A DNA stretch of 64,000 nucleotides from an uncultured Fibrobacterota bacterium (GCA_963753345.1 CAVWBU010000024.1:256001-320000); one strand, 5' to 3'; numbered from the stretch's first letter, positions 43,728-63,636 are shown. Notes: generated from the sequence alone by a model not told the origin. Numbers and translations: made by a program.

Positions 43728-43919
43728 TAAGTAAATATATTGGATGATGTAGTGACTTAGGATGATTAAAATCAAAAGGTTGAAACCAGATTATTGGTTG
43801 AAGTCCAGGATTCACTGAGCAATGCCGGCGTTTCGAAATGAAACAATTTCCATCACATATTGGATCATGTAAAATGCCGCAAATTTTCCCGGTCCCTCAA
43901 TCATTTATATTACCACTGT

Positions 43920-44540
43920 ATGCCAATCATCCGCATCAAGATCTGCGGCATTACGCAATACGACGACGCCAAGACAGCGGTGAGTCTCGGGGTTGACGCG
44001 CTCGGTTTTGTTTTCCACCCCGCAAGCCCGCGTTATATCCACCCGGAAGCGGCGCGCGACATTATTGCCAGGCTCCCGCCATTCGTCTCCAAGGTCGGCG
44101 TATTTGTCAACGAAACCGCCGAAACGATTTTCTCGGTCATGTCGCAGGCCGGCATCGACACGGTCCAGCTCCACGGCGACGAGACGCCGGATTTCGCCAA
44201 CGCTCTCTCGTGCCCGGTTGTCAAGGCGTTCGGCGTCAAGCCGGGCTTCGACATCGCCACGCTCGCCCCCTACAAGGTAAGCGGCTACCTTCTCGACACC
44301 TGGAGCGAAGCGCGCGGCGGGAGCGGCGCGACCTTCGACTGGTCGCTGGCGCAGCAGGCCACGAAGCGCTACGCCAATGTGATTCTTGCGGGCGGGCTCA
44401 ATCCCGCAAACGTTCGCGAAGCCCTTGAAAGCGTCATCCCGTATGCCGTTGAATTCAACAGCGGCGTGGAGATCAAGCCGGGCGTCAAAAACCATTACAA
44501 AATGCGCGAGGCGGTTGAGATTGTGCGGTCCTGGAAGTAG
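43920..44540 (+). CDS. trpF: Phosphoribosylanthranilate isomerase
   Basis: IKICGIT, SPRY, VGVFVN, QLHGDE, GGSGATFDW, LAGGL, SGVE. Confidence 0.96.
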   Translation: MPIIRIKICGITQYDDAKTAVSLGVDALGFVFHPASPRYIHPEAARDIIARLPPFVSKVGVFVNETAETIFSVMSQAGIDTVQLHGDETPDFANALSCPVVKAFGVKPGFDIATLAPYKVSGYLLDTWSEARGGSGATFDWSLAQQATKRYANVILAGGLNPANVREALESVIPYAVEFNSGVEIKPGVKNHYKMREAVEIVRSWK

Positions 44541-44759
44541 TTGGGTTTGCTCGCTTGCAGTCCTCGCATATGCGCAGGTCGCGTTCTCTTTTCTTTGAAC
44601 CCATATTCGTTCATCATATATATTTTCCACTCCGTAATTTGGTTTGCCCCCCATCAAACAGGATTGTCGGGCGAAGGTCCAAGCGGAAGCAGCGCGGTTA
44701 AGCGCTATTTCTCCTTCCGCCCGACACCGGCAATACCCGTTAGTCAACCGTGGCAGGCC

Positions 44760-47700
44760 ATGCCGGATTTCCCAATGGCACAACGACAACTCCTTTTTCT
44801 GCTGTGCGCCGGCGTGCTGTTCGCCGCATCTTCCGCCTCGCCCCCGCCCCGCCAGCTCTTCTTCCAATACAACAATATTGTGTGGTGGGGAACCGAGTTC
44901 GGCCTCAACCGGTTTCAAACCACCAACGAACTGTGGGGAAACATCCGCTCCGAATCGGTGAACGACCTCTGCCTTGACGATCCGGAATTGTGGGTGGCCA
45001 CCGATCACGGCGCCCTGTACGCCGATCTGCGCTACCTCGACTGGAAGTCGTACACCGCCAAGCATGGCTTGCCGTCCGACACGGTTGTCCGGCTCGTGGC
45101 GGACCCGGATTACGTGTACGCCGCGGGCCCGCACGGGCTTGCGCGGTTCAACAAGGTGGTGATGCAGTGGGAACCCATGGGCGCCTTTGCCGACAAGCGC
45201 ATCTACGACCTGTATTCCAACCAGGCGCAACTGTGGGTCGCCACCGACCAGGGCGTATTCTATTTTGACAAGAAGTTCGAAAAATGGGAAAATTACACCA
45301 CGAGCACCGGCCTTATTTCCAACACCGCGTTCAGGCTTTTTTACTTCAGCGACCACATCTGGGTCGAGACCGACAAAGGTTTTTCCCGGTATTCGATCAG
45401 CATGAAGGCGTGGAACTCCTACCCGCTTAACAACGGCATCGTGGGCTCGGCCGTCAGCTACATGCTGGTTGACGCATCGTACATCTGGGTGGTGTCGCCC
45501 GAGGGCGTGGCCCGGTTCAACGGCAGCAGCCAGACCTGGGAAAACTTCTCCCGCAACACGCATGATCGACAAGAAGACCGTTTATTCCCTTTCCACGTCC
45601 GGAACTACCGAATGGTTTACCACCTCCGACGGCGTGTATACGTTCGACGAATCCCAGCGCCGGTGGAAGACTTACACGGCGGTGGACGGCCTCAGCGACG
45701 ACGCGCAGGACGAAGTGTACACCTCGGGCCAGACCACGCTGTGCAGAAAAGGCGCTTCGTTTTCCTATTTGAAAACCGACCAGGACCTTTGGTATGCCAC
45801 CCAGATGAAGGTGACCGGCATGGGCGGGCAAAGACCGAAATGGAAGGCGCACATGGACGAAACAGGGCTTGGCGTCACGGCGCCGGCAGGCCAGAGTTTG
45901 AGCCTTCAGGGGACCGCCGAATACAAAGTGGAAAACAAGGCGACGTTTCCCTCGCCGCTCACCACCAGCATCCCCAATTACCTATTGAACAAGAACCTCG
46001 ATTCCGTGGTCTACACCTACGACACACTGGCCAACGGCGCAATAACGCGCACGGTCGAAGATACCGTCGCAACATACAAGGACTTTCTTTACGGATGGCC
46101 AAAGGCCCAGCTTAATCTGAACGGCGACCTCAATAACGGACGCACGTTCCGGGCCACCTACGACAACACCGATCCTCTCGGCGATCTGCGCTACAGCGCG
46201 GAATACCGCGGCTTCGGCGAAGACAATCTGCGAAGGCTTGGCTGGCGCACCGACCAGAAGACCGATTACTTCTTCAGTTCGCTCATCAGCCCCACCTATC
46301 TTAACGGCGCAGGGCGTCCGCACCGAGTTCGGCGACCGGGTCGGCGACAAGAAGCTCCGCCGGGTGAATACCGGCGTGTGGGCGGGCTTCGGGAAAACCA
46401 AGTTTTTCAGGAAACTCATTCCGTTCCGTGAAGACAACTTTTACGAACTCGACATACAGAATATCGTCACCGAAACCGTGCAAATCCTCGTGGACGGCCA
46501 GGTGGTTGACCCGAGCGACTACAGCATCGAGCGGACCATGGGCCTGCTTTCATTCAAGAACGAAGGCCTTGCAAACCCGGATTCCCGCATCGAGGTTTCC
46601 TGCCAATACCAGCCGGTCATCGGCGAGTACACGAACCAGATGGCTTCGGTTGAGAACGTGGTTGAGGTGAACGATAAGCTTGCCCTCGGCGTCAACGGCG
46701 CTTATCGCGGATTCAAAGAGCCGGACCGCACCGGGCTGGATTCTTCGTACAACCGAGACTTTGCCGGCAGCGCCAACACCAAGATCGAGATGAAATCGGC
46801 CGACAACAAGATGTACCTTCGCGCCGTGCCCGAAGTGTCGGGCAGCTACAACGATTCGATTGTCGCGATAAAACAGGGTTCCGCGGCAAAACTCGATCTC
46901 TATTCGGTGATGCATAATCTCAAACTCACGGTGAACGGAATTTTCCAGACGCCCGATTACGTTACTCTCGCCGACCAGAATTCCGTTTACGGAAGGATAA
47001 ACTACCAGGGGCAGGGCGAATTGGTGTGGGACCTGTGGAAGCAGTACATGCCGATCACTGCCGGCGCCGGCGTGATAAACGCTTTGTCCGGCAGCGAAGT
47101 GCGGGAGTACGCGCAGTACCTTATCTCGCTGCCCGAACTTCCGTCCCTTCGGCTGTTCGGCATGCATCAGGACATGAAGAACTACACGCAACTGCCGCGC
47201 GACTCCCTGCCCGGCGACCGCGACTCGCTCAAGTCGGACCGGTGGAACGGCGTTGTGGAAACGGAATGGGGCCATTCGTTCAAGCGCATGGACAGGATAT
47301 GGTTCGACCTTTCCTATTCCGTCAATTTCCTCACCGATTCCGTCGACACGAACGTTTCCGGCGGATCGACCCCGGGCACCTACGACCTTGTGCCCCAGTT
47401 CGACCAGAAACTCAATCACAATATTTTTGCATGGATCAGGTTCTCACCCTTAAAAAAACTGCAGCTCGAAACCAAGAGCGTTTTCAGGATTTACCAGGGC
47501 CGCAGCAGCCTGGACAGTGTCATGGCATTCCGGGGGGACCTGATTCGGCCCGAATTCAAGATCTTTTCCCAGGAGCTTGTCCCGGGCGTCACGCTGTACG
47601 GCGATGATCAGCTGCAAACCGCGCAATATGTCGTCAGCTCGTCCGAATGGTTAAACTCAACATCGAACATGGTGAACGCCAGCCTGCTTCTTGTTCCCGG

Positions 47701-48497
47701 CGTTTACCTCAAGTTTCTCAACCCGTTTCAGCTCAACCTCGGCTACGGATTGTCAACTGCCGATTCGTCGTCCCTTATTTCCACCGGCAACGGCGACAGC
47801 ACCTACACGTTTTCGAATGCCTCGACCCAGACCTACACGATCAAGCCGATATTCGACTTCACCCAGGACCTTCATTACGACAGCAGGGTGGAAAAAACGA
47901 ATTCCACAAACCTGACCTACGCGACCGACGACGGCCTCAAGTGGTACAACGAGGCGCGTCTTGCTTTTAGAGACCGGAAGACCAGGTTCGACATCGATCT
48001 CAACATGTTCTTCGACGACATGAGCATGCCGAATTACGGCAACCAAGGCCTCGACACCTTTGCCGTCAAGAGCACGTTCGAAGAATTAATAGTCAAGTGG
48101 ACGGAACGCTGGTCGCCGAATCTCAGGACAGAATCAACAGTCGACGTTTCCCGGCAGAACCTTGACTCAACCTTCAACGATGCAGCCAACAACATCTTCA
48201 GGGACACCGTGACCGGGTATCTTAACTCGCTCACGCCCGGAATATTGTTCGACTGGCGCATTCCCGGCAAGATAATAAGGGAATGGCGGACCCAGTACTA
48301 TATCGGCGCAATGCTTTCCGGCGGAAGGGGTTACGATTTTAACACCTATACGCAGACATGGCAGAACAAGTTCGACATCCAGGTGAAGGCCGGGGCCAAT
48401 TTCTTCCTGCGCCTGCTGATGGAAGTGGACTATGTGTTCAATACCAAGGTGCTGATTTACAATATGGCCGCAATTGAAGGCGACGGCATTGTTCTAA
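44760..48497 (+). CDS. Large outer-membrane protein: N-terminal beta-propeller repeats, SprA-like periplasmic motif, C-terminal beta-barrel; three apparent frameshifts (about 45560, 46303, 48468)
   Basis: Signal peptide; LWVATD.G and W..YT...GL repeats; stitched from ORFs 44541, 45469 and 46238; alternative frame ends QLKATALF* at 48497 (terminal Phe). Confidence 0.65.
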
Positions 48498-48657
48498 GGT
48501 TGGCGAATTATCGATAAATCGGCTAAATTACGAAGGAGAGCTGCGCGTACTTCACGTGGAATAGAAGAGTTATGATGTTGGGCAGGGCAAGCAGGTGTCG
48601 TGTTTGGTGTTGAGGCTACGCTCTTTCGCGGGTTCTCCTAGAAATGGCAGGGTGGCT

Positions 48658-50148
48658 ATGAATCAGAAGAAAATCAATCGAAGAAAATTCCTGGTGGAGT
48701 CGCTTGAGACCGCGGCGGGGCTTGGTTTCATTGCAGGCTGCGACAAAAGAACAATCGTTGAGCCGGATGTCCGGCTGCCGGCAGCGCCGACCGGCCTGGC
48801 TTACAACCTTGCCTCAAGCGGCACCGGAACCGTCGATTCGGTCATAGTCACCTGGAACCAGCCTGTTACCGATGTTACGGGAGCAAAGTTGTGGACGGGA
48901 ATCCGTGCCTATGATGTTTACCGCAACGACACCCTGCTTGCGCAGGTGACCGATCCGAGTTTCGCGGATGCCGGCGGGTTTACCGTGGGAAGTACCTGCG
49001 CCTACACGGTACGGGCCGTCGACTCCAGCACGGTTATCGGGCCCAATGGCCAGCCGGGAAACCAGAGCCCGCCGTCCGATCGTCTGCTTGTTCCCATTCA
49101 GAAGGCGTCGTATGTATATCCCGTCGCCAATGCCGCCGCCAACACCGGCACCATAGGAAGACCGAATATCCAGGCGGCTCCGCTCAAGTCGATGATCGAC
49201 GCGGCGGTCGCGCAGATGCAGATTGACAAAGGTGCAATTCCCCCGGGAAGCACCCAGGACCCGGCGATCGTGACGGCCGCGTGGGAATCGCTGTTCCCGG
49301 GCTTGACTGTATCTTCACTTATAGGAATCAAGGTCAACACGCTCGGCGGTTCAAACGTAAGTACGAGGCCGGAGGTTGTGACCGCCATGGTGAGCAGTTT
49401 GACGGCAATGCTCGGCGGAACGTTTCCCGCCTATAATATTATTGTTTTCGACGACAGGTCTCCGGGCGCCCAGATGGCGGCGGCCGGGTTTCCCTTGCGA
49501 AACGTGAACGGCACCTACCGGATCGCGTCGGCCAGCTTCAACACCACGCTCAATAATGGGGTTCCCGTAAGCCAGCAGGAGCCGGGGGCTTCTCTGTGGG
49601 GATCCACCGTCAACATCGCCGGCGCGGACAGAAGGCTCACCGCAATATTCGACGCCGTTGACTTTCTGATCAACGTTCCAGTCCTCAAGGATCATGATCA
49701 GTCCGGAATATCATTCTCCATGAAGAACCTTTACGGCATTACCGACATCTGGAACGGTCCAGGGGCCATGCACGACACGATGTGCAGTCCGTCGATTCCG
49801 GCTCTGTATCAAGCCGCCCAAGCAATACCGAACGCAGGAACCGGCTCATCCAAATTTGTTCTCATTGTCGGGGACGCGCTCCAGGGATGCTATAATCTAG
49901 GGCCAGAGGGACCGCCCAACTGCCAGCCGAATTCCATTGTCGTGGGCACCGATCCGGTTGCTATGGACACCTGGGCCTTAAAAACAATCAACGCCTTGCG
50001 GGCAAAATACGCGCCCACGCTTCCGGAAATTTCCTGGACGCACAGCACCAACCCGGATCAGTCCGATGCCCGGCACATCCTGGATGCGGCCATTCAATAC
50101 AATCTCGGATCAACCAATTTCGTTGCAGGGAAGGTTTCGCTCGCATGA
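48658..50148 (+). CDS. Tat lipoprotein with Fn3 domain and DUF362 domain
   Basis: NRRKFL twin-arginine signal with IAGC lipobox; PAAPTGL...YTVRAVD Fn3; IGIKVN, INVPVLKDH, MKNLYG, DPVAMD. Confidence 0.85.
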   Translation: MNQKKINRRKFLVESLETAAGLGFIAGCDKRTIVEPDVRLPAAPTGLAYNLASSGTGTVDSVIVTWNQPVTDVTGAKLWTGIRAYDVYRNDTLLAQVTDPSFADAGGFTVGSTCAYTVRAVDSSTVIGPNGQPGNQSPPSDRLLVPIQKASYVYPVANAAANTGTIGRPNIQAAPLKSMIDAAVAQMQIDKGAIPPGSTQDPAIVTAAWESLFPGLTVSSLIGIKVNTLGGSNVSTRPEVVTAMVSSLTAMLGGTFPAYNIIVFDDRSPGAQMAAAGFPLRNVNGTYRIASASFNTTLNNGVPVSQQEPGASLWGSTVNIAGADRRLTAIFDAVDFLINVPVLKDHDQSGISFSMKNLYGITDIWNGPGAMHDTMCSPSIPALYQAAQAIPNAGTGSSKFVLIVGDALQGCYNLGPEGPPNCQPNSIVVGTDPVAMDTWALKTINALRAKYAPTLPEISWTHSTNPDQSDARHILDAAIQYNLGSTNFVAGKVSLA

Positions 50149-50702
50149 ATTCGTCCGGCTTGAGACATTTCGTATCTCCCCTTTACCGTATTGCAATCAT
50201 TGCGCTGCCGCTGATATTTCTTACCCAGTGCCGCATCAGCAAGGATCCCGGCGCCGGGGCGGACCCGCAGGACTATTTGCCCCTGGACAACGACATAAGC
50301 GGCTATGTCAAGAAGGGCAGCGTCTCGCTCATGACCGACCAGCAGTCGATCTTCAACGCCATCGACGGCGCAGCGCAAAGCTACATCACCTACGGGTTCG
50401 AGGAAGGCGTGGTGCAATTGTACAGCAACGGCAGCGTGGACATCAACGTTGAGATTTTCAACCAGGGGACCCAATCATACGCCCAGTCCCTTTATAATTA
50501 TTTCATGCCCACCTCTCCTCAAATCCTGAGTCAGAACAATCCGGCCGTGGTTGTGGACCTTTCTCAGGCAACGTCGTACACCATCCAGTACACCAAGCAG
50601 AGCATATTCATGCGCATAACCACCACCGAGAAATCCGATTTTGCGCTCGATATGGCAAAACAGTTTTATTACAACATCGACAACAAAATCGGCGCGCAAT
50701 AG
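50145..50702 (+). CDS. DUF6599-like lipoprotein
   Basis: Lipobox-like LTQC; IFNAIDGAAQSYITYGF motif. Confidence 0.65.
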   Translation: MNSSGLRHFVSPLYRIAIIALPLIFLTQCRISKDPGAGADPQDYLPLDNDISGYVKKGSVSLMTDQQSIFNAIDGAAQSYITYGFEEGVVQLYSNGSVDINVEIFNQGTQSYAQSLYNYFMPTSPQILSQNNPAVVVDLSQATSYTIQYTKQSIFMRITTTEKSDFALDMAKQFYYNIDNKIGAQ

Positions 50703-50763
50703 ATGATGTATATTTTTGATCCGAAATCGTGATGATTTTGTCCCATAAAAAAGGAGCCGGATT

Positions 50764-51669
50764 GTGATAACGCGAAGAGAATTCATCAAGACCGGAAGCG
50801 CGGCCGCCGCGGGCGCCGCAATGTCGTCCGTCAATGTCCTGGCCGAAGACAAGAAGAAGCCGCTTGTCGCGGTTGCAAAGGGAAAGCCCGAGGAGATCGT
50901 CAAGAAGGCGGTTGACGCGCTCGGCGGCATGCAGAAATTCGTGAAACAGGGCGACCGCGTGGTGCTCAAGGCCAACATGGGATTTCCCAACCCGCCGGAA
51001 TGGGGCACCACCACGCACCCGCAAATCGTCAAGGCGGTCGCGCAATTGTGCCTCGACGCGGGCGCGCAGCGCGTCATCGTGCTGGACCATCCCCTGCGCG
51101 ACGGCGCGGTCTGCAAGGAAAAAAGCGGCATCGGCGCCGCGATTGAAGGCATGAAGGGCGCCGTGGTCGCCCTGCTCGAAGATCCCAAGTTCTACCAGGA
51201 AACGCCCATTCCGAACGCGAAGCAGCTCAAGAGCACGTCCATCGCCAAGGAAGTGCTGCGGGCAAACTGCCTCATCAACGTACCGACGGCAAAATCGCAT
51301 GACGCAACAGGTGTGAGCCTCGGCATCAAGAACCTTATGGGGCTGGTGTGGGACCGCCAGTTCATGCACGAACAGGTGGAGCTCAATCAGGCAATCGCGG
51401 ACCTTCTCCTGGTTATCAAGCCGCATCTCACCATTGTCAATGCGGTCTACGCGCTCCTCACCAACGGCCCGAGCGGACCCGGAAAGACCGAGGAGCTCAA
51501 CACGGTTGTGGCAAGCGCGGACCCCGTGGCCGCGGATTCGTACATGGTGGGCATCGCCCGCTGGTACAACAAGGAATTCAAAGGCAGCCAGGTCAAACAC
51601 ATCAAGAACGCCTACGACATGGGGCTCGGCGAGATTGACGTTGAGAAGATGGACGTGAAGATAGTATAA
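50764..51669 (+). CDS. Tat-exported DUF362 domain protein
   Basis: TRREFIK signal; LGGMQKFV, VVLKAN, TTHP, INVPTAKSH, IKNLMG, GPSGPG, DPVAAD. Confidence 0.92.
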   Translation: MITRREFIKTGSAAAAGAAMSSVNVLAEDKKKPLVAVAKGKPEEIVKKAVDALGGMQKFVKQGDRVVLKANMGFPNPPEWGTTTHPQIVKAVAQLCLDAGAQRVIVLDHPLRDGAVCKEKSGIGAAIEGMKGAVVALLEDPKFYQETPIPNAKQLKSTSIAKEVLRANCLINVPTAKSHDATGVSLGIKNLMGLVWDRQFMHEQVELNQAIADLLLVIKPHLTIVNAVYALLTNGPSGPGKTEELNTVVASADPVAADSYMVGIARWYNKEFKGSQVKHIKNAYDMGLGEIDVEKMDVKIV

Positions 51670-51740
51670 CGTTTCGCTCCATGGTGATGGTTGCATGGCG
51701 CCCTGATTTTTGTTGCCCTGCTTTGCCGAGATCGACGAGT

Positions 51741-52082
51741 ATGACAGTGAACACCCAAATCCTTGCCCCTGACGAAAAAGCGGCACTTGAGGAGATCAAA
51801 TACCGCGTGTCCATGCTGTGTCCGGTGCGGCAATACATCCTGTTCGGCTCCAAAGCAAGGGGCGAAGCCCAGCCTGATTCGGACATAGATCTGCTTATCA
51901 TAACCAAACGGCCATTGACAACGGGAGAACGAAACGGAATTTCACATGAGATTTTCGAAGTGAACATTGCCCGCGACACGAATTTCTCCCGCATCATAGT
52001 TGACACAGAAGAATGGGAAAACGGCATGACTTCCGCCCTTCCCTTCCACGACAACGTTCTTAGGGACGGTATTCCAGTATGA
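51741..52082 (+). CDS. Minimal nucleotidyltransferase (MNT) antitoxin
   Basis: LFGSKARG...DSDIDLLI. Confidence 0.9.
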   Translation: MTVNTQILAPDEKAALEEIKYRVSMLCPVRQYILFGSKARGEAQPDSDIDLLIITKRPLTTGERNGISHEIFEVNIARDTNFSRIIVDTEEWENGMTSALPFHDNVLRDGIPV

Positions 52083-52471
52083 TAAGTGAGGAAAACAGGC
52101 GTCGGATCCCCGCTTTCTGGCTTACCCGCGCGGAAGAATCTCTGGCTGCGGCATCGCTCGCTTTTGAAAACAGCCTTCTCACTTCGGCGGTAAATCGGAC
52201 ATACTATGCCGCTTTTTACGCCGCGTGCGCACTTCTTGCCAAAGACGGGAGTGATTACGGAAAACATTCAGCCGTTAGGGCCGCCGTCCACCGGGACCTG
52301 GTCAAGACAGGCAGAATAGGCGTAGAATTCGGTGAACTCTTTTCCATCCTTTTTGAAGAACGCAATGAAGGCGATTACCTTTCCTTTAAAAACTTCTCCG
52401 AGACAGATGTCGCGTCTTGGCTGAGCAGGACCCGTGAGTTCCTGGCCGTTACAAGGAAATTGATATCATGA
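52079..52471 (+). CDS. HEPN domain protein (UPF0332-like)
   Basis: AVNRTYYAAFYA, KHSAV, RNEGDY; start overlaps the MNT stop. Confidence 0.9.
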   Translation: MISEENRRRIPAFWLTRAEESLAAASLAFENSLLTSAVNRTYYAAFYAACALLAKDGSDYGKHSAVRAAVHRDLVKTGRIGVEFGELFSILFEERNEGDYLSFKNFSETDVASWLSRTREFLAVTRKLIS

Positions 52472-54170
52472 AACTATCAACCTTTCGCCGCATTACGCAG
52501 GCCGTCACGTTTTCTCTCTTCACAATACTTTTCATTTTCACTATGTACCCGTTTGCCGCGAAGTTCCCGGTCGACGCGTTCCTCAGGCTCGACCCGCTTG
52601 TGGCCACCGTGGCAATGATCGGCTCGCGCGCATTAATCGCCACCATGGTCTGGGCGGCCGTGCTTCTCGCGCTTTCGCTTGTTGTCGGCAGGTTTTTCTG
52701 CGGGTATGTCTGCCCGCTCGGCACGCTTATCGACCTTTCGGATTTCCTTGTCCACGGCAAAAAGCACAAAAAGGAAACCGTTGAGCCAAAGCCCAACCGG
52801 AGGATCAAGTACTACGTGCTTATCGGCGTTGTCGCGGCCTCGCTGATCGGCGCAAACCTCCTCGCCTTCGTTAGCCCGATGTCCATTGCGCCGCGCATGT
52901 TCTCGCTGGTTTTGTTCCCGCCGGTCGTATGGCTTATAAACGCCGCCGTGGACCTGCTTCGTCCCGTGTTTCTCGCCGCGGGCATGGACACCTTTACACA
53001 GGTGAATTTCATGCGGTATTTCTTTTCGTCCGGCGTCACGGCGTTTGTTTTTCTCGCCATCATCGTGGCGGCGAGCTTCTGGCGCAAACGTTTCTGGTGC
53101 AGGTACGTGTGCCCCACGGGCGCTTTTATTTCGCTGTTTTCCAGATTCGGCATTGTCAAGCGCACCGTGAACGACGCGCTCTGCACCGACTGCAAGCTCT
53201 GCGCGGCCAAGTGCGACATGCGGGCCGTTGCCCTCAATCCGCGCAACACCATCTTGTCCGAATGCGTGCTGTGCGGGGACTGCGTTGACGGATGCAAGAA
53301 ACACGCGATCACCATCGGAATCGCCGGGTTCGGCTTCGGCAAGGCCGATCCGGCCCTCAACATCGAGCGCCGCGGATTCATCCAGTCCGCAACAGCCGGC
53401 CTTCTCCTTGCCGCGACCGCAAAGGCCGGGCTCAACAGCCCGAAGAACCTCAACGGCCGGTTTATACGCCCCCCGGGTCCCTGCCGGAATCCGAGTTCCT
53501 CGCGCGCTGCATCCGCTGCGGCGAATGCATGAAGACGTGCAAAACGAACGGGCTCCAGCCCGCCGATCTCGAGGCGGGATTCGACGGCCTGTGGACCCCG
53601 CACCTGGTGCCCAGGCACGGGCCGTGCGAAGACAAGTGCAACATGTGCGGCCACGTGTGCCCCACCCAGGCCATACGCGGCCTCCCGCTTGAGGAAAAAC
53701 AGTTTGTCAAGATGGGCACGGCCGTTATCGACCGCCACCGGTGCATTGCCTGGGAGCAGGAAAAGCTCTGCCTCATCTGCGCAGAAATATGCCCCATCCA
53801 CGCCATAGATTCCATGGTGGTGGACAATTTCAAGGGGCCTTTTAAGCGGCCGTTCGTGATGGACGACAAGTGCATCGGCTGCGGGTACTGCGAAAAAGCA
53901 TGCCCGGTGCAGGGAAGGGCGGCCATCGAGGTGTATTCTATCGGTGAGAACAGAATAAACAAAGGCTCGTATATCACCGAAAAGAAGAAAGCCCTTCGCG
54001 CCATAAAGGAATCCGACGCGGAAAACAGCGTCAGCGCCGATGCCATGGGGTCGGGCGGCGAGATAAAAGGCGCGGAAAAGCCGGGTGGCCCAGCACAACA
54101 GGCAGCGCCAAAACCGCAAAATGCTGTCCCTCCTTCAGGGGAAGAATTGCCCAAGGGGTTCACGGAGTAG
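52468..54170 (+). CDS. Membrane polyferredoxin: NapH/MauN-like TM domain fused to NapG/MauM-like 4Fe-4S domain; one frameshift at about 53476
   Basis: GRFFCGYVCPLG, FWCRYVCPTG, many CxxCxxC motifs, internal ERRGFI; adding one G in CCGGGTCC restores RPPGSLPESEFLARCIRC. Confidence 0.88.
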
Positions 54171-54290
54171 AGAATTCGTTCCGGCCCGGCTTGTCTGCAA
54201 GAAATGGCTGAATCGGAATATTTCAGACAAACCGGCTTTTGCCTAAAATTTCGATATCAAGGCATTCGTAGTCGAACAAGGTGGGAGTGT

Positions 54291-54887
54291 GTGATTTTGA
54301 ATCCTAAGCGCCATATCATGCTGGCGGGAGCGATGGGAGTGTTGGGTATGATATCATGCGCAAATGGCCCGACCAGCCGTCAAGCCACGTTGGCTGATTT
54401 TTATGTCACCACCCAGGTGGACGGCTGGGTTCCGGCTTCAAACAGCCCTTTTGCCGTCATGCCTATTGAAAGTCTGTATCGCGCAGTCGACGGCGATGCT
54501 GCTCTCTACCAGAATGTCGGACTCGAAAACTGGTTTATCGAGCACATGTACGGCGGGCCCACGCACACAGACACCAACGGCAATTATCATTTCGAGGGCT
54601 ATGTTGAAGAATACGGCTCTGCGGCAAGTTCAAAAGCTATCTTTGACAAGATCACCGCGCTGCACGTGATCCAAAATCCGCTCGATACCACCTTTTCCGA
54701 CACGGTGCAGCTTGCCGGTTTTTCACTTGACGAGGCGCAGGCGGTCCGGGTCCAGGGGGGAATCGATGTCTATGCCACGTTTGATAGATATTTTTTCAGT
54801 CTTGAGTTTACCGGATACGCAGACCCGACAACCGCAGCGCCGGATGCGGTGAATTTTTTGAGCGATTATAAGGCATTGGCAAAATAG
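54291..54887 (+). CDS. DUF6599-like lipoprotein
   Basis: GTG start after GGGAG; MISC lipobox; LYRAVDGDAALY motif. Confidence 0.6.
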   Translation: MILNPKRHIMLAGAMGVLGMISCANGPTSRQATLADFYVTTQVDGWVPASNSPFAVMPIESLYRAVDGDAALYQNVGLENWFIEHMYGGPTHTDTNGNYHFEGYVEEYGSAASSKAIFDKITALHVIQNPLDTTFSDTVQLAGFSLDEAQAVRVQGGIDVYATFDRYFFSLEFTGYADPTTAAPDAVNFLSDYKALAK

Positions 54888-55022
54888 AAGCAGTGGATGT
54901 TCAGGCGTAGAGCGTAGTATATTTATTTATATAATGGCAAATAAATCAGGCGTAATCGGTTAAATCTAATATATTTATTGATAAAGGCTGGATTGACATC
55001 TTGAACGGAGGGGGTTAATGTC

Positions 55023-55634
55023 ATGAAATCGGGTTGGACAAAAGCGTTTTCAAAAGTGCTTGCCGGAGCGATTTGCGGTGTGGGAGTAATGGCGCTTACG
55101 TGCGCAGGGCCCACGACGCCGAAAGCCGTAACGACTCCGGTGGACAGTTTGATTATTACCAATCAGATTACCGGCTGGGTGCTTGACTCGTCTGTGTCGG
55201 TCTCCGGCGCCGCGACGATGCCCTTCACCAATTCCACGGCAAATAGTAATTGGGTCGATGGCGGATGCCCCAGTTATTGCGGTAAGTGCGATGGGACCGA
55301 TGCTCTCAAGGACGGTTTCGGTACTTACCTCAAGGAACCGCTTGCCGGCGCCACCCGCAAGCTGGAAGTATTCGTGCTCGACTATGGATCAGCAGCGGCT
55401 GCAGATTCGGAATTCAATATCTGGCCCATTAAATACGCGGCGTCGACAAAGGAAACTATTTCACCGTTCCCGAATACCACCGCAATCGGATTCGATGTCG
55501 GCGGCGGATTGTACGTTTTTGCACATATGAGCAATATATTTATTGAAATGCAGTTTAGTGACTACGACTCGTCAAGCCAGGCGGTGCCGGATGCGAGTGC
55601 GTTCTCGACATATTACAATTCAAAAATAAAATAA
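55023..55634 (+). CDS. Lipoprotein, divergent DUF6599-like paralogue
   Basis: ALTC lipobox; shares TNQITGW, VDGG, DYGSAAAA and PDA..F with the upstream gene. Confidence 0.6.
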   Translation: MKSGWTKAFSKVLAGAICGVGVMALTCAGPTTPKAVTTPVDSLIITNQITGWVLDSSVSVSGAATMPFTNSTANSNWVDGGCPSYCGKCDGTDALKDGFGTYLKEPLAGATRKLEVFVLDYGSAAAADSEFNIWPIKYAASTKETISPFPNTTAIGFDVGGGLYVFAHMSNIFIEMQFSDYDSSSQAVPDASAFSTYYNSKIK

Positions 55635-55692
55635 TGAATAAAGATTGTTAATTTTGTTTTCTTAACCATCTCTTTCACGAGGGGGAAATATC

Positions 55693-57199
55693 ATGAGTGA
55701 AAAGACATTGAAGACGAGGCGGAATTTCTTGAAAGCCTCCGCGGCAAGCGCGGCCGGATTGGCGCTTGTTGGGTCCATTGGCGAATAAGGCAAAGGCAGC
55801 GAACATAACCACCACGTTGGTCAACCTCAGCACAACGCCGATCAACACGGACGTGGATAACCTGCGCGTTGCCTTTATTCAGGACGCGCCCTCCGGGACT
55901 GTTACCTCGACGTCAATGGTTCGGAGTACCACATATCCAGGCTGGACCGACTTCAATAGTCCCACCTACGCGACGGGCGTAAATTTTGCTGCCGTGAAGG
56001 CCAACATGGACAAACTGGCATGCGCGCTCGCCAACAAAACGGATGTAACCGCCGCATGGGCCACTCTTTTGAAAATCCCGTCAACAAAGACATGGCAAAC
56101 GGCCAAAGCAGTGATAAAGCCCAACGCCTTTGCCAGCGACCATCCTTCCGTCCCCATTGTGTCAAGAATATGCGAAGTGCTTATCGGCTTTGGAATGCCG
56201 GCTGCCAATATTACAATCGCTGACCAGGGAGGGAATTGTGGCATATATCTTGGCACGGGCTTGTGTCCTGCCGGTGTGGTGGCCACCAGTGAAGGAGGAG
56301 TGAATAAAACGGGCACCACAGTTCAATTTCCAGCTTCCGCGGGTGGTGAGACGTTTAGTGCACTCACGTGCGTGGGGGACGCGGATATTCTGGTAAGCAT
56401 AGGGTGCAATAAAGGCCATGATCAATTTGGTGAGTATAGCGGTGTTACCATGAGTCAGAAAAACACAAAGGGTGCAATATGGTTCGGCTGCAATGACAAT
56501 AATGCGGCCGGCACAAGGGGCACGCTGCGTTTGGTAAACAACAATTCGTGCGTCTATATGGTCGGCAATATCCCGACTACCTATCCTGCAAAGATGCAGC
56601 TCTATATTGTAGACTCGCTGTGGATGGGCAATGCCGCCGATTGGAGCGGTGGAATTACCGATGGGAACAACGGCAATGCGATTGTGATGGGTACGTTTGG
56701 AGGAGCTGTTGACTACGCGACAACCATGAAAATAAGAGTGACAAAATTTGCGGCAAGTACGTGGAACCAGCCCATTGTGAACGCATTTATTACAGGCTAC
56801 GGATACCCTGCTTCAGCTATTACCACAGTCATGAACCCCGTAGCTGCGAACGTGGCAGGGCCGGGCCTTGTTGATGCATCAGGGGTATTGACTTCGACTC
56901 TTCCTCAAGAGAATTCGCATCTTCTTCGCGAGGGAAATGTGCAGATCTCGGTATCGGGCAATGGCATAAGGCCGGTCAACACCACGGTTAGCTTTGCCAA
57001 AGGCGAAACGGCTCAATCTGCCGAGATTTACAATATGCAGGGCAAGAAGGTTCGGACGCTTGCTCTTAACTCCGGAAGCAATCATGTTATTTGGGATGGC
57101 AGGACCGATTCCGGCAGCCTTGCAAGGGCGGGGAATTACATTGTGAGAATCAGAGGCCAGAAGTCCGTGATCTCGGGGGATGTGGCGCTCAGCAGGTAA
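55693..57199 (+). CDS. Tat-exported divergent DUF362 protein with C-terminal FlgD/T9SS-CTD-like domain; frameshift at about 55765
   Basis: ATG at 55693 gives MSEKTLKTRRNFLKASAASAAGLA, continuing in ORF 55766; VIKPN, NKGH, GVTMSQKN; tail IYNMQGKKVRTL...WDGRTDSG...AGNYIVRI. Confidence 0.72.
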
Positions 57200-57228
57200 C
57201 TTTCCGAATTTCGCTTTGGTTGGTTGTC

Positions 57229-57265
57229 AAAAGACCCTTTCCGTATGGAAAGGGTCTTTCTTTTT
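57229..57265. terminator. Bidirectional intrinsic terminator
   Basis: 13-bp stem AAAGACCCTTTCC-GTAT-GGAAAGGGTCTTT with T-tract, between convergent genes. Confidence 0.85.
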
Positions 57266-57324
57266 CCGAAACGAATGATATAAGAGGCAGGTTGAAGATT
57301 CCGTCGTAGCAGAAAGCAATGCTC

Positions 57325-59388: not shown

Positions 59389-62300
59389 TTAGAATCCGGT
59401 GGAAGCGCCGGAAATCTTGACAAGATTGGGCTGGGTGGTATACGTACCGTTTCCAAGTTGTCCGTTGCCGTTGGCTCCGCAGACCCAGACCGTCCCATCT
59501 GTTTTCACAACGAAACTCGAACCATTCCCCGCGTCTGCCGCAATATACTGAACTCCGGACATTACGTTTTCTGGAGCCCGTCGCGTGGCTGTTTGTCCGT
59601 CACAAAGCTGGCCGTTCAGGTCGAACCCTGTTGCCCAAAGCACTCCTCCGGTCGTGAGCATCAACGTTTGCGTTTGACCTGCCGAAACGCTTGCCACATT
59701 GGCTACCGAGAGCATTTGGGCAGGTACGATGTTTTGAGTTGTGGAGCTGTCCGCATTTCCCAGCTGACCTGCGTAATTGAATCCCCAGCTCCAAACCGTG
59801 CCATCGCTCTTTATGGCGAAACTCTGCTGGTATGCGGCGGAAATACTCGTGAACGTGCCGGTGATAGTAACGGGATATAGGGTGGAATCGCCATTGTAAA
59901 GGGTGCCATAGCCGAGTTCACCGGAACCGTTATCTCCGCAGGCGTACAGCGTTCCATTAGTCATCAAAACCAGTGAGAACCCCTGCCCTGCAGCCACCGC
60001 TTTAACGCCCGAATAATAGACCTCCTCCGGACTGGTTCTGCTTATTGTGGTACCATCTCCAAGTTCACCAGAGGAATTTCCGCCGCAGGCCCACAGTGTT
60101 TGATCTTTCTTTAGTATCAAGATATGTGTGGAGCTTGCTGACATGCTTTGCACATTTGTCATGATCTTTGTAGTGCTGCCAGATGCGACTTGGTAAAGGT
60201 CCCCAGTGCTTGTAAGATAGAGGCTGGAGCCGCCATTGACAGCGACGGCGCTAATAATGCCGGTCTTGACCTTTATGGGCGTGAGCTGAACAGTAGTTCC
60301 TCCGTCGCACAGTTCCCCATAGGAATCATCCCCGCATGCCCACAGTGTGCTGTCGGACTTGACAAAGAGGGTATGCATATCGCAGCAAGAGATCTGAGTC
60401 ACACTGATAACGGTTACTGTGACACTTGCAGTTGAGGTGTTACCACATGGTGTGCTGCTTTCCGCACGTACATAATAAGTTGTGGTCGCTGCAGGAGTAA
60501 CTGTAATGGAAGTCCCGGCACCTGCAGCGTTCGTGCATCCTGAGTTCGTGTACCATTTCCACGAAGCGCCAGTTCCAAGCGATCCTCCCGAAACGCTCAC
60601 CGTCGTCGAATTGCCCGCATTGATTTTTGCAGATCCGGCAGTTGCCCCGGTCGGTGCAATTGAAGGCACACTAACGGTTATGGTGGTGGTCGCCGTTGCA
60701 GTATTGCCGCATGTGCCCTCGGCTCGCACATAATAGATGGTTGTTGACGTAGGAGAAACTGTTATGGACGCTCCCGTGTTGGTGCCCGTAACCGGGATGG
60801 TGCAGCCGGCGTCCGTGTACCAGTGGTACGAAGCGGCGGTACCGAGCGTTCCGCCAGACTCGGTGAGCGTTGAGGTGCTGCCGGAGCAGATGGTTGTCAC
60901 GGTGGCGCCTATGCTTGTGGGAGCTACCGAGTTCGTGTTGACAGTAACGACTGCCGAGGAACCTGTTGTGTTACCGCAGGCGCCTTCGGCGCGGACATAA
61001 TACGTTGTTGTGGTGCTTGGCGTCACCGTGATCGGAGTTCCCGTGTTGATGCCGGTAACGGGAGTGGTGAAGCCGGCATCGGTGTACCATTTCCAACTAG
61101 CGCCGGTGCCCAACGTGCCTCCCGAAACGCTGAGCGAGGAAGAAGTTCCCGAACAAACGGTTGAAGGCGTCGCAACCGCGCCATTGGCCGCTGTTGAGGG
61201 TGTATTCACCGTCACCATCACGCCAGCGGTCGCGGTGTTGTTGCCCGCGCCCTCCGCACGCACGTAATACGTGGTCGTTGACGTTGGAGAAACAGTTATC
61301 GGAGTTCCCGTGTTGTTGCCGAGCACGGGCGTCGTGCATGCGGCATCCGTATACCATTTCCACGAGGCGTCTGTTCCAAGAGAACCGCCGGTAACGCTCA
61401 GTGAGGATGATCCGCCGGAACAGATGGCGGCCGGATCGGCCGAAGCGCCGGTGGGTGCGGTCGACGTAACGGTCAACTGCGTTGTGGAGGAATCCTTGCC
61501 CGTCGGGTTGGTCACCACCACTTTGTAAACCCCGCCGTCGGCGCCTCCCCATGTTTTCGAATAGGAAGCAGTTGTCGCGCCGGTGATTGCCGCGCCGTTG
61601 TAGTACCATTGATACGTAATGGGCGGCGTGCCGGATGCAACGATCGTCAGCGCAGTGCTGCTGCCCTGAACAACATTGGTGGTCCCGGGGAGCGGCGTGG
61701 TAATGGAGGAATTAATCGTGACCGCAGTCTTTGAGGAATCACTTCCTGCGCTATTTGTCACTACCACCTTGTAAACTCCGCCGTCGCCCGCTCCCCATGT
61801 CTTGGAATAGCTGCTCGAGGTTGCGCCGGAAATTGCCGCGCCGTTGAGATACCACTGGTACGTCAGCGTCGCAGTGCCGGCTGCCGTGACTGAAAGCGCC
61901 GTCGTGCTGCTTATCGCTATGCTCGTGCTTGCGCCAAGTCCCGTGGTGATGAGCGGGCTTACGGTAACCTGCGTGGTCGACGAATCCTTTCCCGCTGCGT
62001 TTGTTGCCACCACTTTATACGTTCCGCCGTCGGTTGCGGTCCAGGTCTTCGAATACGAACTCGATGTCGCGCCGCTGATTGCCGCGCCGTTAAAATACCA
62101 CTGATAGGTCGGAGCGGTCCCGGATGCGGTGACCGATAGCGCGGTGCTGCCGCTTTGGATTACAGGCGTGTTTGCGGCAAGACCGCTCGTAATAACCGGG
62201 CTTACGGTCAATTGCGTCGACGAAGAATCCTTGCCCGTCGGGTTGGTCACCACCACTTTGTAAACCCCGCCGTCGGCGCCTCCCCATGTTTTCGAATAGG

Positions 62301-63636
62301 AAGCAGTTGTCGCACCGGTGATTGCCGTGCCGTTATAATACCATTGATACGTAATGGGCGCCGTTCCCGACGCGAGGATCGTAAGCGGCGTGGCGCTGCC
62401 CTGAACAACATTGGTGGTCCCGGGAAGCGGCGTGGTAATGGAGGAATTAATCGTGACCGTAGTCTTTGACGAATCGCTGCCTGCGCTATTTGTCACTACC
62501 ACCTTGTAAACTCCGCCATCGCCTGCTCCCCACGTCTTGGAATAGCTGCTCGTGGTTGCGCCGGTGATTGCCGCGCCGTTGTAATACCATTGATAGGTGA
62601 GCGTCGCAGTGCCGGCAGCCGTGACCGAAAGCGCCGTCGTGCTGCTTACCGCTATGCTCGTGCTCGCGCCAAGCCCCGTGGTGATGAGCGGGCTTACAGT
62701 AACCTGCGTGGTTGAGGAATCCTTTCCCGCGGTATTGGACACCACCACTTTGTACGTTCCGCCGTCGGTTGCGGTCCAGGTCTTCGAATACGAGCTTGAT
62801 GTTGCACCGGTGATTGCCGTGCCGTTGTAATACCACTGGTATGAGAGGTTGGCGCCGCCGGCAACGACCTGCAGCGCGGTTGTACCGCCTGCCGTGATGG
62901 AAGTAGTCGCAGCTAATGGGGTCGTGATCTGAACCGCGATGACCGCGCTTACCGATATCTTCACCGTTACGGTGTCCGACATAGGTGGCGTGCCATTGTC
63001 GGTTGCCGCAAACACGGCGGAATCCGTTCCGGTGAATCCTGAAGGAGGCGTCCACGTGAATACAGTGCCGTTGAGCGTAGCGCCCTGCGGGCCCTTGACA
63101 AGAACGATAGTGCTGGTCTGGCCCGCGTCGGAATCCTGCACCGACAGCGACAGCGAACATTCCTGCGTCGTGAGGATGTTTCGCACGCCCGACACCTCCA
63201 GCACCGGCGGCCGGTTGGGGGTGGGTTTGCCGGCAATAATAATTGATGCCGTAACCGTCTTTTCCGTGCCGCCCGCGAAAACCACAATTGAAACGGTGCG
63301 GGTTCCGGCCGAACGGAACGTGATGGAAACATCCTGGGTCTCGGTCCAGGCTGTGCTCTTGTCAAAGACATGAACCGTGTCCGTATCGGTGACGCCGTAA
63401 ACAGTCACCTTCACCGAATCGATGTAGGAAGGAAGATAGGCGGTCAGGGTGATGGTCACCTGGTTGCCGACACTGTCGGAAATGGTGGAGCCGCTTTTCT
63501 GGCCCGCGGAATTTTCAAGTACCGGCGTGACCGTTGCTTTGGAAGGATCGAACGGATTCTGCTGGCTGGTGCAGGTTAAAAGGACAAGTGAGGACACCAA
63601 CAAGGCGAGCAACGAACCAGGTTTACAGGTACGCAT
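59389..63636 (-). CDS. Giant surface lipoprotein: cadherin-like domain, six I-set Ig repeats, four CHU-type Ig repeats, C-terminal RCC1 beta-propeller
   Basis: LLTC lipobox; YQWYYNG.AI.GAT repeats; YYVRAE repeats; LWACG.N..GELG RCC1 repeats. Confidence 0.88.
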   Translation of the reverse strand: MRTCKPGSLLALLVSSLVLLTCTSQQNPFDPSKATVTPVLENSAGQKSGSTISDSVGNQVTITLTAYLPSYIDSVKVTVYGVTDTDTVHVFDKSTAWTETQDVSITFRSAGTRTVSIVVFAGGTEKTVTASIIIAGKPTPNRPPVLEVSGVRNILTTQECSLSLSVQDSDAGQTSTIVLVKGPQGATLNGTVFTWTPPSGFTGTDSAVFAATDNGTPPMSDTVTVKISVSAVIAVQITTPLAATTSITAGGTTALQVVAGGANLSYQWYYNGTAITGATSSSYSKTWTATDGGTYKVVVSNTAGKDSSTTQVTVSPLITTGLGASTSIAVSSTTALSVTAAGTATLTYQWYYNGAAITGATTSSYSKTWGAGDGGVYKVVVTNSAGSDSSKTTVTINSSITTPLPGTTNVVQGSATPLTILASGTAPITYQWYYNGTAITGATTASYSKTWGGADGGVYKVVVTNPTGKDSSSTQLTVSPVITSGLAANTPVIQSGSTALSVTASGTAPTYQWYFNGAAISGATSSSYSKTWTATDGGTYKVVATNAAGKDSSTTQVTVSPLITTGLGASTSIAISSTTALSVTAAGTATLTYQWYLNGAAISGATSSSYSKTWGAGDGGVYKVVVTNSAGSDSSKTAVTINSSITTPLPGTTNVVQGSSTALTIVASGTPPITYQWYYNGAAITGATTASYSKTWGGADGGVYKVVVTNPTGKDSSTTQLTVTSTAPTGASADPAAICSGGSSSLSVTGGSLGTDASWKWYTDAACTTPVLGNNTGTPITVSPTSTTTYYVRAEGAGNNTATAGVMVTVNTPSTAANGAVATPSTVCSGTSSSLSVSGGTLGTGASWKWYTDAGFTTPVTGINTGTPITVTPSTTTTYYVRAEGACGNTTGSSAVVTVNTNSVAPTSIGATVTTICSGSTSTLTESGGTLGTAASYHWYTDAGCTIPVTGTNTGASITVSPTSTTIYYVRAEGTCGNTATATTTITVSVPSIAPTGATAGSAKINAGNSTTVSVSGGSLGTGASWKWYTNSGCTNAAGAGTSITVTPAATTTYYVRAESSTPCGNTSTASVTVTVISVTQISCCDMHTLFVKSDSTLWACGDDSYGELCDGGTTVQLTPIKVKTGIISAVAVNGGSSLYLTSTGDLYQVASGSTTKIMTNVQSMSASSTHILILKKDQTLWACGGNSSGELGDGTTISRTSPEEVYYSGVKAVAAGQGFSLVLMTNGTLYACGDNGSGELGYGTLYNGDSTLYPVTITGTFTSISAAYQQSFAIKSDGTVWSWGFNYAGQLGNADSSTTQNIVPAQMLSVANVASVSAGQTQTLMLTTGGVLWATGFDLNGQLCDGQTATRRAPENVMSGVQYIAADAGNGSSFVVKTDGTVWVCGANGNGQLGNGTYTTQPNLVKISGASTGF
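61480..62850. repeat. Intragenic tandem duplication of a three-Ig-domain block (period 735 nt)
   Basis: AATCCTTGCCCGTCGGGTTGGTCACC... occurs at 61491 and 62226; protein order A-B-C-A'-B-C. Confidence 0.9.

Follow-up and report, generated by a model that had tools for sequence, protein, structure and literature searches.

What do DUF362 proteins do when they are exported from the cytoplasm, and with which partners do they work? The question is raised by a locus in a metagenome-assembled genome (MAG) of an uncultured Fibrobacterota bacterium, whose closest proteins carry the label Chitinivibrionales / Fibrobacterota. The stretch of DNA analysed, hereafter the window, is G000:C24:256001-320000 (64,000 nt), and coordinates are counted from its start. 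Downstream of trpF (43860-44540), the + strand carries ten genes up to a strong terminator; eight of them make up the system considered here and two are an inserted HEPN/MNT pair. The eight encode an outer-membrane protein (OMP), three DUF362 paralogues with twin-arginine translocation (Tat) signals, three DUF6599-type lipoproteins and a membrane polyferredoxin. DUF362 is a large family without an assigned function, and the locus could give it its first testable one. Judging from sequence comparison, the gene set is a real, widely conserved and undescribed cell-envelope system. We propose that it is built around exported, LarA-like DUF362 proteins loaded with the nickel-pincer nucleotide (NPN), one of them wired to the quinone pool, a model to which we give an even chance of being right.

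The core of the system is a pair of genes encoding the soluble, predicted periplasmic DUF362 protein D362_sol (50764..51669, + strand; Tat signal, 301 aa) and a polyferredoxin of the NapH/NapG type (52468..54170, + strand). An alignment of D362_sol was scanned against one genome per species, which yielded 80 loci in many phyla. A NapH-like gene directly adjoins the D362_sol homologue in 61 of the 80 and a NapG-like part is present in 59; of the 19 loci without an adjoining NapH-like gene, 7 have less than 1 kb of downstream sequence, too short to judge. The pair is found in Fibrobacterota, Thermodesulfobacteriota, Desulfovibrionaceae, WOR-3, Armatimonadota, Latescibacterota, NC10, Myxococcota, Planctomycetota and other groups.

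The preliminary description of this DNA had made its proposal depend on the OMP and the lipoproteins occurring together with DUF362 and the polyferredoxin in other genomes, and such co-occurrence is indeed seen. An open reading frame (ORF) resembling DUF6599, detected with a lipoprotein hidden Markov model, is present in 25 of the 80 loci and mostly ends at the start of D362_sol; 23 loci hold a second DUF362 ORF. Two WOR-3 loci (L049 and L067) keep the order D362_A, DUF6599, D362_sol, polyferredoxin, and continue with a protein of 1235-1339 aa, whose first ~390 residues in L067 are homologous to the propeller of the OMP (27% identity, E 4e-25). The tatC gene adjoins the set in L049 and L053. 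Myxococcota and Deltaproteobacteria loci have a giant protein after D362_sol in which Reg_prop repeats are combined with an internal DUF6599 domain (1358 aa at L076:4124-8197 and 1412 aa at L080:7858-12093; 40.5 and 23.5 bits); these are natural fusions of the propeller protein and the DUF6599 protein that are separate genes in the window.

Closer to the window, the order OMP, D362_A, Lipo1 is kept in all seven related loci examined. The four same-genus loci among them add D362_sol and the polyferredoxin, and three of these four (G002, G004 and G005) further add Lipo2, Lipo3 and D362_CTD, the last in two copies in G002; these three genes were not found within the stretch examined of the G003 locus. 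In another genome (G022) the core pair lies ~11 kb away from OMP, D362_A and Lipo1. The barrel part of the OMP was matched in 13 of 41 related genomes, among them all five remaining same-genus genomes and some from three more families, and its range is narrow, with only 21 relatives among 1.84 billion representatives.

The polyferredoxin combines a NapH-like membrane part, an internal twin-arginine segment and a NapG-like four-cluster domain. It scores 66 bits with Fer4_5, 92-95 bits with NapH models and 85-96 bits with NapG models; since all NapH and NapG scores are below the equivalog cut-offs, it is neither NapH nor NapG proper. In the intact G002 orthologue (567 aa), Cx3CP motifs at 78 and 211 are followed by cytoplasmic 4Fe-4S motifs at 238 and 265, the internal twin-arginine at 300 (RRRGF) and four cluster motifs at 347, 393, 437 and 468. 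Tooke et al. (2017, PMC5449189) demonstrated that Sec and Tat jointly insert such a NapH-NapG fusion, termed a polytopic polyferredoxin, and by its motifs the protein of this locus belongs to the same type, with predicted dual targeting. The tie between an inner-membrane polyferredoxin and a periplasmic Tat-exported DUF362 protein, already proposed in the preliminary description, is borne out by the 61 adjoining loci, and the two are very probably a functional redox pair.

We next turn to what DUF362 itself may be. Two of the three paralogues pass the gathering score of Pfam DUF362 (PF04015, 24 bits): D362_sol with 163.9 bits and D362_A with 74. The third, D362_CTD, reaches only 18.3 bits against this model, below the cut-off, and is homologous to D362_A (hhalign probability 99.3%, E 9e-21). 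According to PMC11770544, DUF362 and the LarA N-domain family share one Pfam clan, CL0471. PDB searches with the D362_sol sequence and with its profile gave nothing significant, and LarA was found by fold comparison only. The AlphaFold2 model of D362_sol has a predicted local distance difference test score (pLDDT) of 90, and the 14 matches with E <1e-3 listed for it by Foldseek are all LarA-family entries or a Thermotoga maritima structural-genomics homologue. VIA-align places residues 39-270 of the model on LarA 34-270 with a Z of 19.4 and a root-mean-square deviation of 2.6 Å over 209 residues; twelve LarA-family entries score Z 16-19, and the next unrelated entry 5.9.

The residues at the putative cofactor site point the same way. 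The invariant positions in an alignment of 26 D362_sol homologues include Lys69, Asn71, Lys177, His179, Lys189, Arg198, His202, Asp253 and Asp258, and hhalign sets His179, Lys189 and His202 onto the His/Lys/His of LarA, which in LarA sequences of the PDB lie within the stretch EPH...GGxK...H. In LarA, His174 is catalytic, and the cofactor interacts with Lys184 and His200 (PMC7583248). Among the 81 D362_sol-type ORFs in the 80 loci, His179, Lys189 and His202 are present in 77, 80 and 80, respectively, and the corresponding site of D362_A (His346/Lys356/His372) is invariant in 12 sequences from four phyla. None of the locus proteins had a Lar_N match listed in a Pfam scan with E up to 0.01. By fold model and alignments, DUF362 is a one-domain relative of the LarA cofactor domain in which the His/Lys/His site appears to be kept; it is a sister family within the LarA clan and itself no LarA. 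The preliminary description had spoken of DUF362 metalloenzymes of no known function, and this can now be refined to homologues of the LarA cofactor domain. An Fe-S cluster within DUF362 was considered and rejected, because only one Cys is invariant in the 26 homologues (conserved in 71 of the 81 ORFs).

Fe-S domains are instead found as fusion partners. In this genome, 2x[4Fe-4S] domains are fused to three cytoplasmic DUF362 paralogues, and in one of these paralogues the domain is inserted right behind the His/Lys stretch. For D362_A, the 120 homologues listed of 308 matches show no carbohydrate-binding or other informative fusion: they consist of DUF362 alone, four of them also with a Tat signal or a tail of the type IX secretion system (T9SS) kind. 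The DUF362-CBM9-dockerin fusions reported in PMC5742341 are likewise not among these 120.

The genome also encodes the enzymes for the nickel-pincer cofactor, LarC (401 bits), LarE (310 against a cut-off of 150) and LarB (278 against a cut-off of 175). It holds no true LarA; the only Lar_N match (25.7 bits) falls on a DUF362 paralogue. Across 151 sampled genomes from the phylum, 105 had LarC, 9 had strong LarA (Lar_N of at least 130 bits) and 71 had strong DUF362 (E up to 1e-40). Strong LarA is missing from 96 of the 105 LarC-positive genomes, and LarC is present in 69 of the 71 genomes with strong DUF362, a count that overstates the association because related genomes are not independent. Within a sister family (f10), 8 of 55 genomes have a strong DUF362, and in 7 of these 8 it lies 2-4 kb from larC. 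In all five f10 loci inspected (L036, at G086:C29:119000-133000, and L037-L040), tatC, larB and larC are accompanied by one or two DUF362 genes with Tat signals; the genes are collinear in four loci and divergent in one. Taken together, the lar links and the Fe-S fusions would account for export through Tat, as the cofactor would already be in place in the cytoplasm, and for the presence of an Fe-S partner.

The other two DUF362 proteins of the locus appear to have different destinations, and here the preliminary description, which had distinguished a lipid-anchored, a soluble and a tailed paralogue, all with Tat signals, proved accurate. D362_A (48658..50148, + strand) has a Tat signal with a lipobox (RRKFL...IAGC) and an N-terminal Ig/Fn3-like module. 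D362_CTD (55693..57199, + strand) has a Tat signal, a divergent DUF362 domain and, at its C-terminus, a T9SS sorting domain of type A (TIGR04183, 26.3 bits; cut-off 23), and the genome encodes a homologue of the T9SS translocon protein SprA (270.8 bits, or 404.6 with neighbouring pieces). A Tat signal on a T9SS cargo is unusual. The same combination is found in single proteins in WOR-3, in the D362_A orthologues at L067:5105-6418 and L049:5124-6440. As read from these sequences, it implies that a folded and possibly cofactor-loaded cargo may be handed from Tat to T9SS.

The three lipoproteins also turned out to be DUF6599-like, as had been described. Lipo1 (50145..50702, + strand) starts within the stop of D362_A (ATGA) and is probably translationally coupled to it. 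Its own score with DUF6599 (PF20244) is 21.9 bits, below the cut-off of 27; its positional orthologues in other phyla pass with 38.4 (L046), 35.5 (L067) and 135 bits (L079), and 19 of 30 Atlas matches to Lipo1 are DUF6599 clusters. Lipo2 (54318..54887, + strand) and Lipo3 (55023..55634, + strand) reach DUF6599 only through hhalign to the Lipo1 alignment (probability 94%, E 1e-7). Lipo1 is thus probably a DUF6599 protein, with Lipo2 and Lipo3 as likely distant paralogues. Along 54200-57200 the G+C content is 0.49-0.51, against 0.55-0.58 upstream, and Lipo2, Lipo3 and D362_CTD share ~32-70% identity between members of the genus, against 66-91% for D362_sol and the polyferredoxin. By these signs the stretch from Lipo2 to D362_CTD looks like a fast-evolving, surface-exposed module.

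The OMP (44760..48517, + strand) is one gene of ~1250 aa with a Sec signal, an N-terminal beta-propeller of ~500 residues made of Reg_prop-like repeats (Reg_prop, 21.2 bits) and a large C-terminal beta-barrel. An AlphaFold2 model of the C-terminal 734 aa shows ~30 long strands at a pLDDT of 57, and at this low confidence neither the number of strands nor the closest barrel type can be named. Foldseek matched the barrel model only to large outer-membrane barrels (SprA, LptD, MtrB, SlpA, TonB-dependent transporters and BtuB1-BtuG1), MtrB (6r2q_B, TMq 0.35) scoring no better than unrelated ones, and an Atlas search with the barrel gave only unnamed clusters and a Porin_4 lead. The model supports no assignment beyond that of a large barrel. 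In the OMP we found no conserved Cys/His ligands or heme motif, and the DUF6599 lipoproteins have no Cys or His conserved across the family besides the lipid-anchor Cys. No locus protein contains a CxxCH motif, in agreement with the earlier statement that the locus encodes no multiheme cytochrome. As the OMP and the DUF6599 lipoproteins offer neither conserved cofactor ligands nor heme motifs, there is no support for electron transfer across the outer membrane, which we consider very unlikely; by its sequences, nothing in the locus appears able to carry electrons past the periplasmic NapG-like domain.

We propose the following mechanism. LarB, LarC and LarE, encoded elsewhere in the genome, would make the nickel-pincer nucleotide, which the DUF362 proteins would receive in the cytoplasm on their conserved Lys, and because they are loaded there, the proteins would leave folded, through Tat. 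Once exported, they may carry out hydride-transfer chemistry on an organic substrate outside the cytoplasm. D362_sol would pair one-to-one with the NapH-NapG fusion by docking on its periplasmic NapG-like domain, and would thereby be linked to the membrane quinone pool or to a cytoplasmic reductant; electrons may flow in one direction or the other. D362_A, through its lipid anchor, and D362_CTD, through T9SS, would reside at the outer membrane or the cell surface. The DUF6599 lipoproteins may be their non-redox partner subunits, a contact that we infer from gene order, and the propeller-plus-barrel OMP may serve as an outer-membrane platform or a substrate gate. More generally, DUF362 may form a second large nickel-pincer branch that trades electrons with Fe-S partners, its Tat members being the first outside the cytoplasm and acting as a tethered 'periplasmic nicotinamide'; this broader idea we put forward tentatively, as somewhat less likely than not.

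Several observations weigh against the nickel-pincer model. DUF362 lacks the LarA C-terminal domain, which carries Lys298; the position near the catalytic His108 (Arg112 in D362_sol) varies between Gln, Arg, His, Asp and Asn; D362_CTD keeps the His and the Lys and has Asn in place of the third residue of the site, with a 4-residue insert; and hhalign of D362_sol with LarA is weak by itself (E 0.12, probability 0.5). Two PDB entries, 9q3j and 9q3k, have titles that describe LarA-like enzymes with only one catalytic His. DUF362 also occurs without LarC in the control Bacteroides thetaiotaomicron, in G019 (100% complete) and in G038 (77% complete), and in ten outside genomes holding the pair LarC, found in all ten, is not discriminating because seven of them have a strong LarA as well. 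Some aldo-keto reductases (AKRs) use the nickel-pincer cofactor, as established for NphT (PMC13524815). AKR genes lie near the DUF362-polyferredoxin pair in 10 of the 80 loci, several of them with Tat signals and Cys motifs, and the f10 genome G086 has a Tat-signal AKR with a C-terminal 4Fe-4S domain 1.5 kb downstream of its larB-larC cluster. On the window's own contig, outside the window, an AKR without a signal peptide (329 aa, 255 bits) is encoded directly upstream of, and on the same strand as, another Tat-signal DUF362 protein (124 bits; L122, G000:C24 ~86.7-88.6 kb). AKRs, and not DUF362, could be the real users of LarB, LarC and LarE. DUF362 would then bind another ligand or metal at the His/Lys/His site, and D362_sol would be a new terminal reductase or dehydrogenase of the NapGH type. 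This explanation deserves to be taken seriously, and we nevertheless judge it unlikely: the most conserved positions of the family are those whose three LarA counterparts bind NPN or act with it, the fold match to LarA is unambiguous, and in f10 it is the DUF362 gene that is directly joined to tatC, larB and larC, the AKR lying further away.

Even with NPN in the site, the exported proteins could be isomerases (racemases or epimerases) with no net redox turnover, the polyferredoxin only re-reducing or repairing the exported cofactor. All characterised LarA homologues are racemases or epimerases (PMC11770544, PMC7583248), and DUF362 has the LarA fold and site in common with them. The tie between DUF362 and Fe-S proteins is, however, near universal, with fusions in the cytoplasm and a dedicated polyferredoxin outside, which looks like stoichiometric exchange rather than occasional repair, and the domain that supplies the catalytic Lys298 of LarA is missing; an isomerase thus seems to us quite improbable. 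The preliminary description had gone further and drawn a heme-free conduit across the envelope, from the quinone pool through periplasmic DUF362 and a dedicated OMP to DUF362 at the surface. By a lipobox and a T9SS tail, two of the DUF362 proteins are indeed predicted at the outer membrane or surface, the OMP is co-conserved with D362_A and Lipo1, and MtrB is among the matches of the barrel model. But that match is equalled by unrelated large barrels in a model of low confidence, neither the OMP nor DUF6599 offers a heme motif or a conserved Cys/His cluster, DUF362 itself has one conserved Cys, and the conserved core of D362_sol and polyferredoxin occurs in most phyla without this barrel. This part of the earlier proposal is unsupported, and we give such a conduit hardly any weight. 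An NPN-loaded DUF362 protein exchanging electrons with the polyferredoxin remains the reading that we prefer.

In the raw window, three of the eight genes are interrupted: the OMP is broken into three frames, and the polyferredoxin and D362_CTD into two each. We compared the region 44700-57300 with Logan short-read contigs from four runs of two studies (freshwater sediment; peat). The window bases at 45560 and 55769 are absent (one base each) in all four runs, and all four have an extra C after 53468, so that the window is one C short in the polyferredoxin. At 46311, three of the four runs have one base fewer, and the contig of the fourth stops there. One base fewer is also seen at each of 48468 and 48502 in all four runs, so that the window gives a wrong reading of the final OMP residues. 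In related genomes, the orthologues of the OMP (1219-1274 aa) and of D362_CTD (509-519 aa) have uninterrupted frames, and the polyferredoxin is a single frame of 566-570 aa in G002, G003 and G005 and two frames in G004. Gene decay was therefore rejected as the source of the breaks, as the run contigs lack the indels and the orthologues are mostly intact; the breaks are single-base assembly errors. By comparison with the contigs, this 12-kb locus holds six such errors. The OMP of G003 (L015/L026, G003:C29) has one in-frame TAA, and this row was excluded from the barrel alignment. SprA, encoded on a different contig (G000:C31:31896-38064), is likewise split, into frames of 827 aa and 1650 aa, consistent with indels throughout the genome. 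Reads should be consulted before any gene of this genome is called a 'pseudogene'.

The same contigs bear on the two remaining genes, MNT (51681..52082, + strand; a nucleotidyltransferase, Pfam NTP_transf_2 40 bits) and HEPN (52079..52471, + strand; Pfam HEPN 67.5 bits). This cassette lies between D362_sol and the polyferredoxin with start and stop codons overlapping its neighbours, and it is missing from the peat-run contigs. Its depth is zero in three of the four runs (X2-X4), in which contigs end at 51668 and resume at 52468, and among the seven related loci it is seen in one only (G004). A toxin-antitoxin pair as a component of the system was rejected on these grounds: six of the seven loci and three of the four runs lack the pair. 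HEPN/MNT was inserted recently, at strain level, into an operon-like locus and lies outside the system. The preliminary description had counted ten genes: eight stand, and the other two are this insertion. Its account of co-oriented genes with overlapping stops and starts closed by a strong terminator agrees with what we found, at or near the positions it gave. The intrinsic terminator (57230..57269, + strand) consists of a hairpin at 57230-57259, with a 13-bp stem containing 6 G-C pairs and a 4-nt loop, followed by a T run.

The locus is flanked by genes for ClpB, trpF, an unknown gene and a giant Ig/RCC1 protein. The last, the downstream neighbour at 59389-63636 on the - strand, has 1414 aa, with many Ig-like domains and, at the C-terminus, an RCC1-like propeller (235 bits). 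Among the distant loci, a Syntrophus MAG (L057, 12474-13489) has the nickel chaperones HypA/HypB 3 kb from the DUF362-polyferredoxin pair, and in a Planctomycetaceae locus (L118, 4531-6560) NrfA/NrfH, the cytochrome c nitrite reductase, is encoded divergently, adjoining the pair.

Within the set of papers searched there was no function bearing on the DUF362 family, no mention of DUF6599 and no combination of nickel-pincer with twin-arginine; a search for COG2006 gave nothing relevant. The main text of PMC13524815 mentions no DUF, DUF362, ferredoxin or twin-arginine, and its supplementary co-occurrence tables may list DUF362 as a neighbour of larBCE. If our model is true, it adds a new enzyme class to nickel biochemistry, provides a client and a rationale for the widespread Sec/Tat dual-targeted polyferredoxin, and explains why larB, larC and larE are kept without larA in many genomes, including most of the Fibrobacterota sampled. 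The quinone pool, the NapH-NapG polyferredoxin and DUF362 would then form a new respiratory or detoxifying module, which raises the question of which extracytoplasmic substrates nickel-pincer DUF362 would oxidise or reduce for anaerobes of peat and sediment. Even if the nickel-pincer assignment is false, a conserved two-gene redox module in about ten phyla still has to be explained.

How does this system compare with known ones? With the LarA superfamily (PMC7583248, PMC11770544) DUF362 has in common the fold of the N-terminal domain, the clan, the His-x9-Lys...His site and the presence of LarB, LarC and LarE. It differs in consisting of one domain, without the Lys298 domain and without the His108 position, and in having members with Tat signals, predicted to be extracytoplasmic and tied to Fe-S partners. 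NphT, an NPN enzyme outside the LarA family for which a mass shift of ~450 Da is reported, was found through larBCE clusters without larA (PMC13524815) and is a precedent for such a search; its fold is a TIM barrel unrelated to DUF362, and AKR genes neighbour DUF362 genes here. The HEPN/MNT genes resemble a toxin-antitoxin pair in their Pfam matches and overlapping genes, and differ in being a passenger within an envelope locus. Like the porin-cytochrome conduits of the MtrCAB type, the locus encodes a large barrel together with envelope redox genes; unlike the MtrB sheath, its barrel has no multiheme cytochrome or other cofactor-binding partner, and its structural match is generic. LptDE, SusCD and BtuB-BtuG are also large barrels co-encoded with small lipoproteins, a likeness by analogy only, as the OMP belongs to none of these sequence families and has a propeller of ~500 residues and DUF6599 partners. 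The polyferredoxin of the delta proteobacterium MLMS-1 (PMC5449189) is built alike, with the Cx3CP pair, two 4Fe-4S motifs on the cytoplasmic side, an internal twin-arginine motif ahead of a fifth helix that is weakly hydrophobic, and a NapG-type four-cluster domain; the text available for that protein names no partner enzyme, and here the partner is a DUF362 protein. The NapGH quinol dehydrogenase is alike in kind and differs in that the partner in this locus is DUF362 and not the nitrate reductase NapAB or NapC. The DUF362-polyferredoxin module is a variant of the NapGH-type arrangement, a quinol dehydrogenase plus a periplasmic Tat enzyme.

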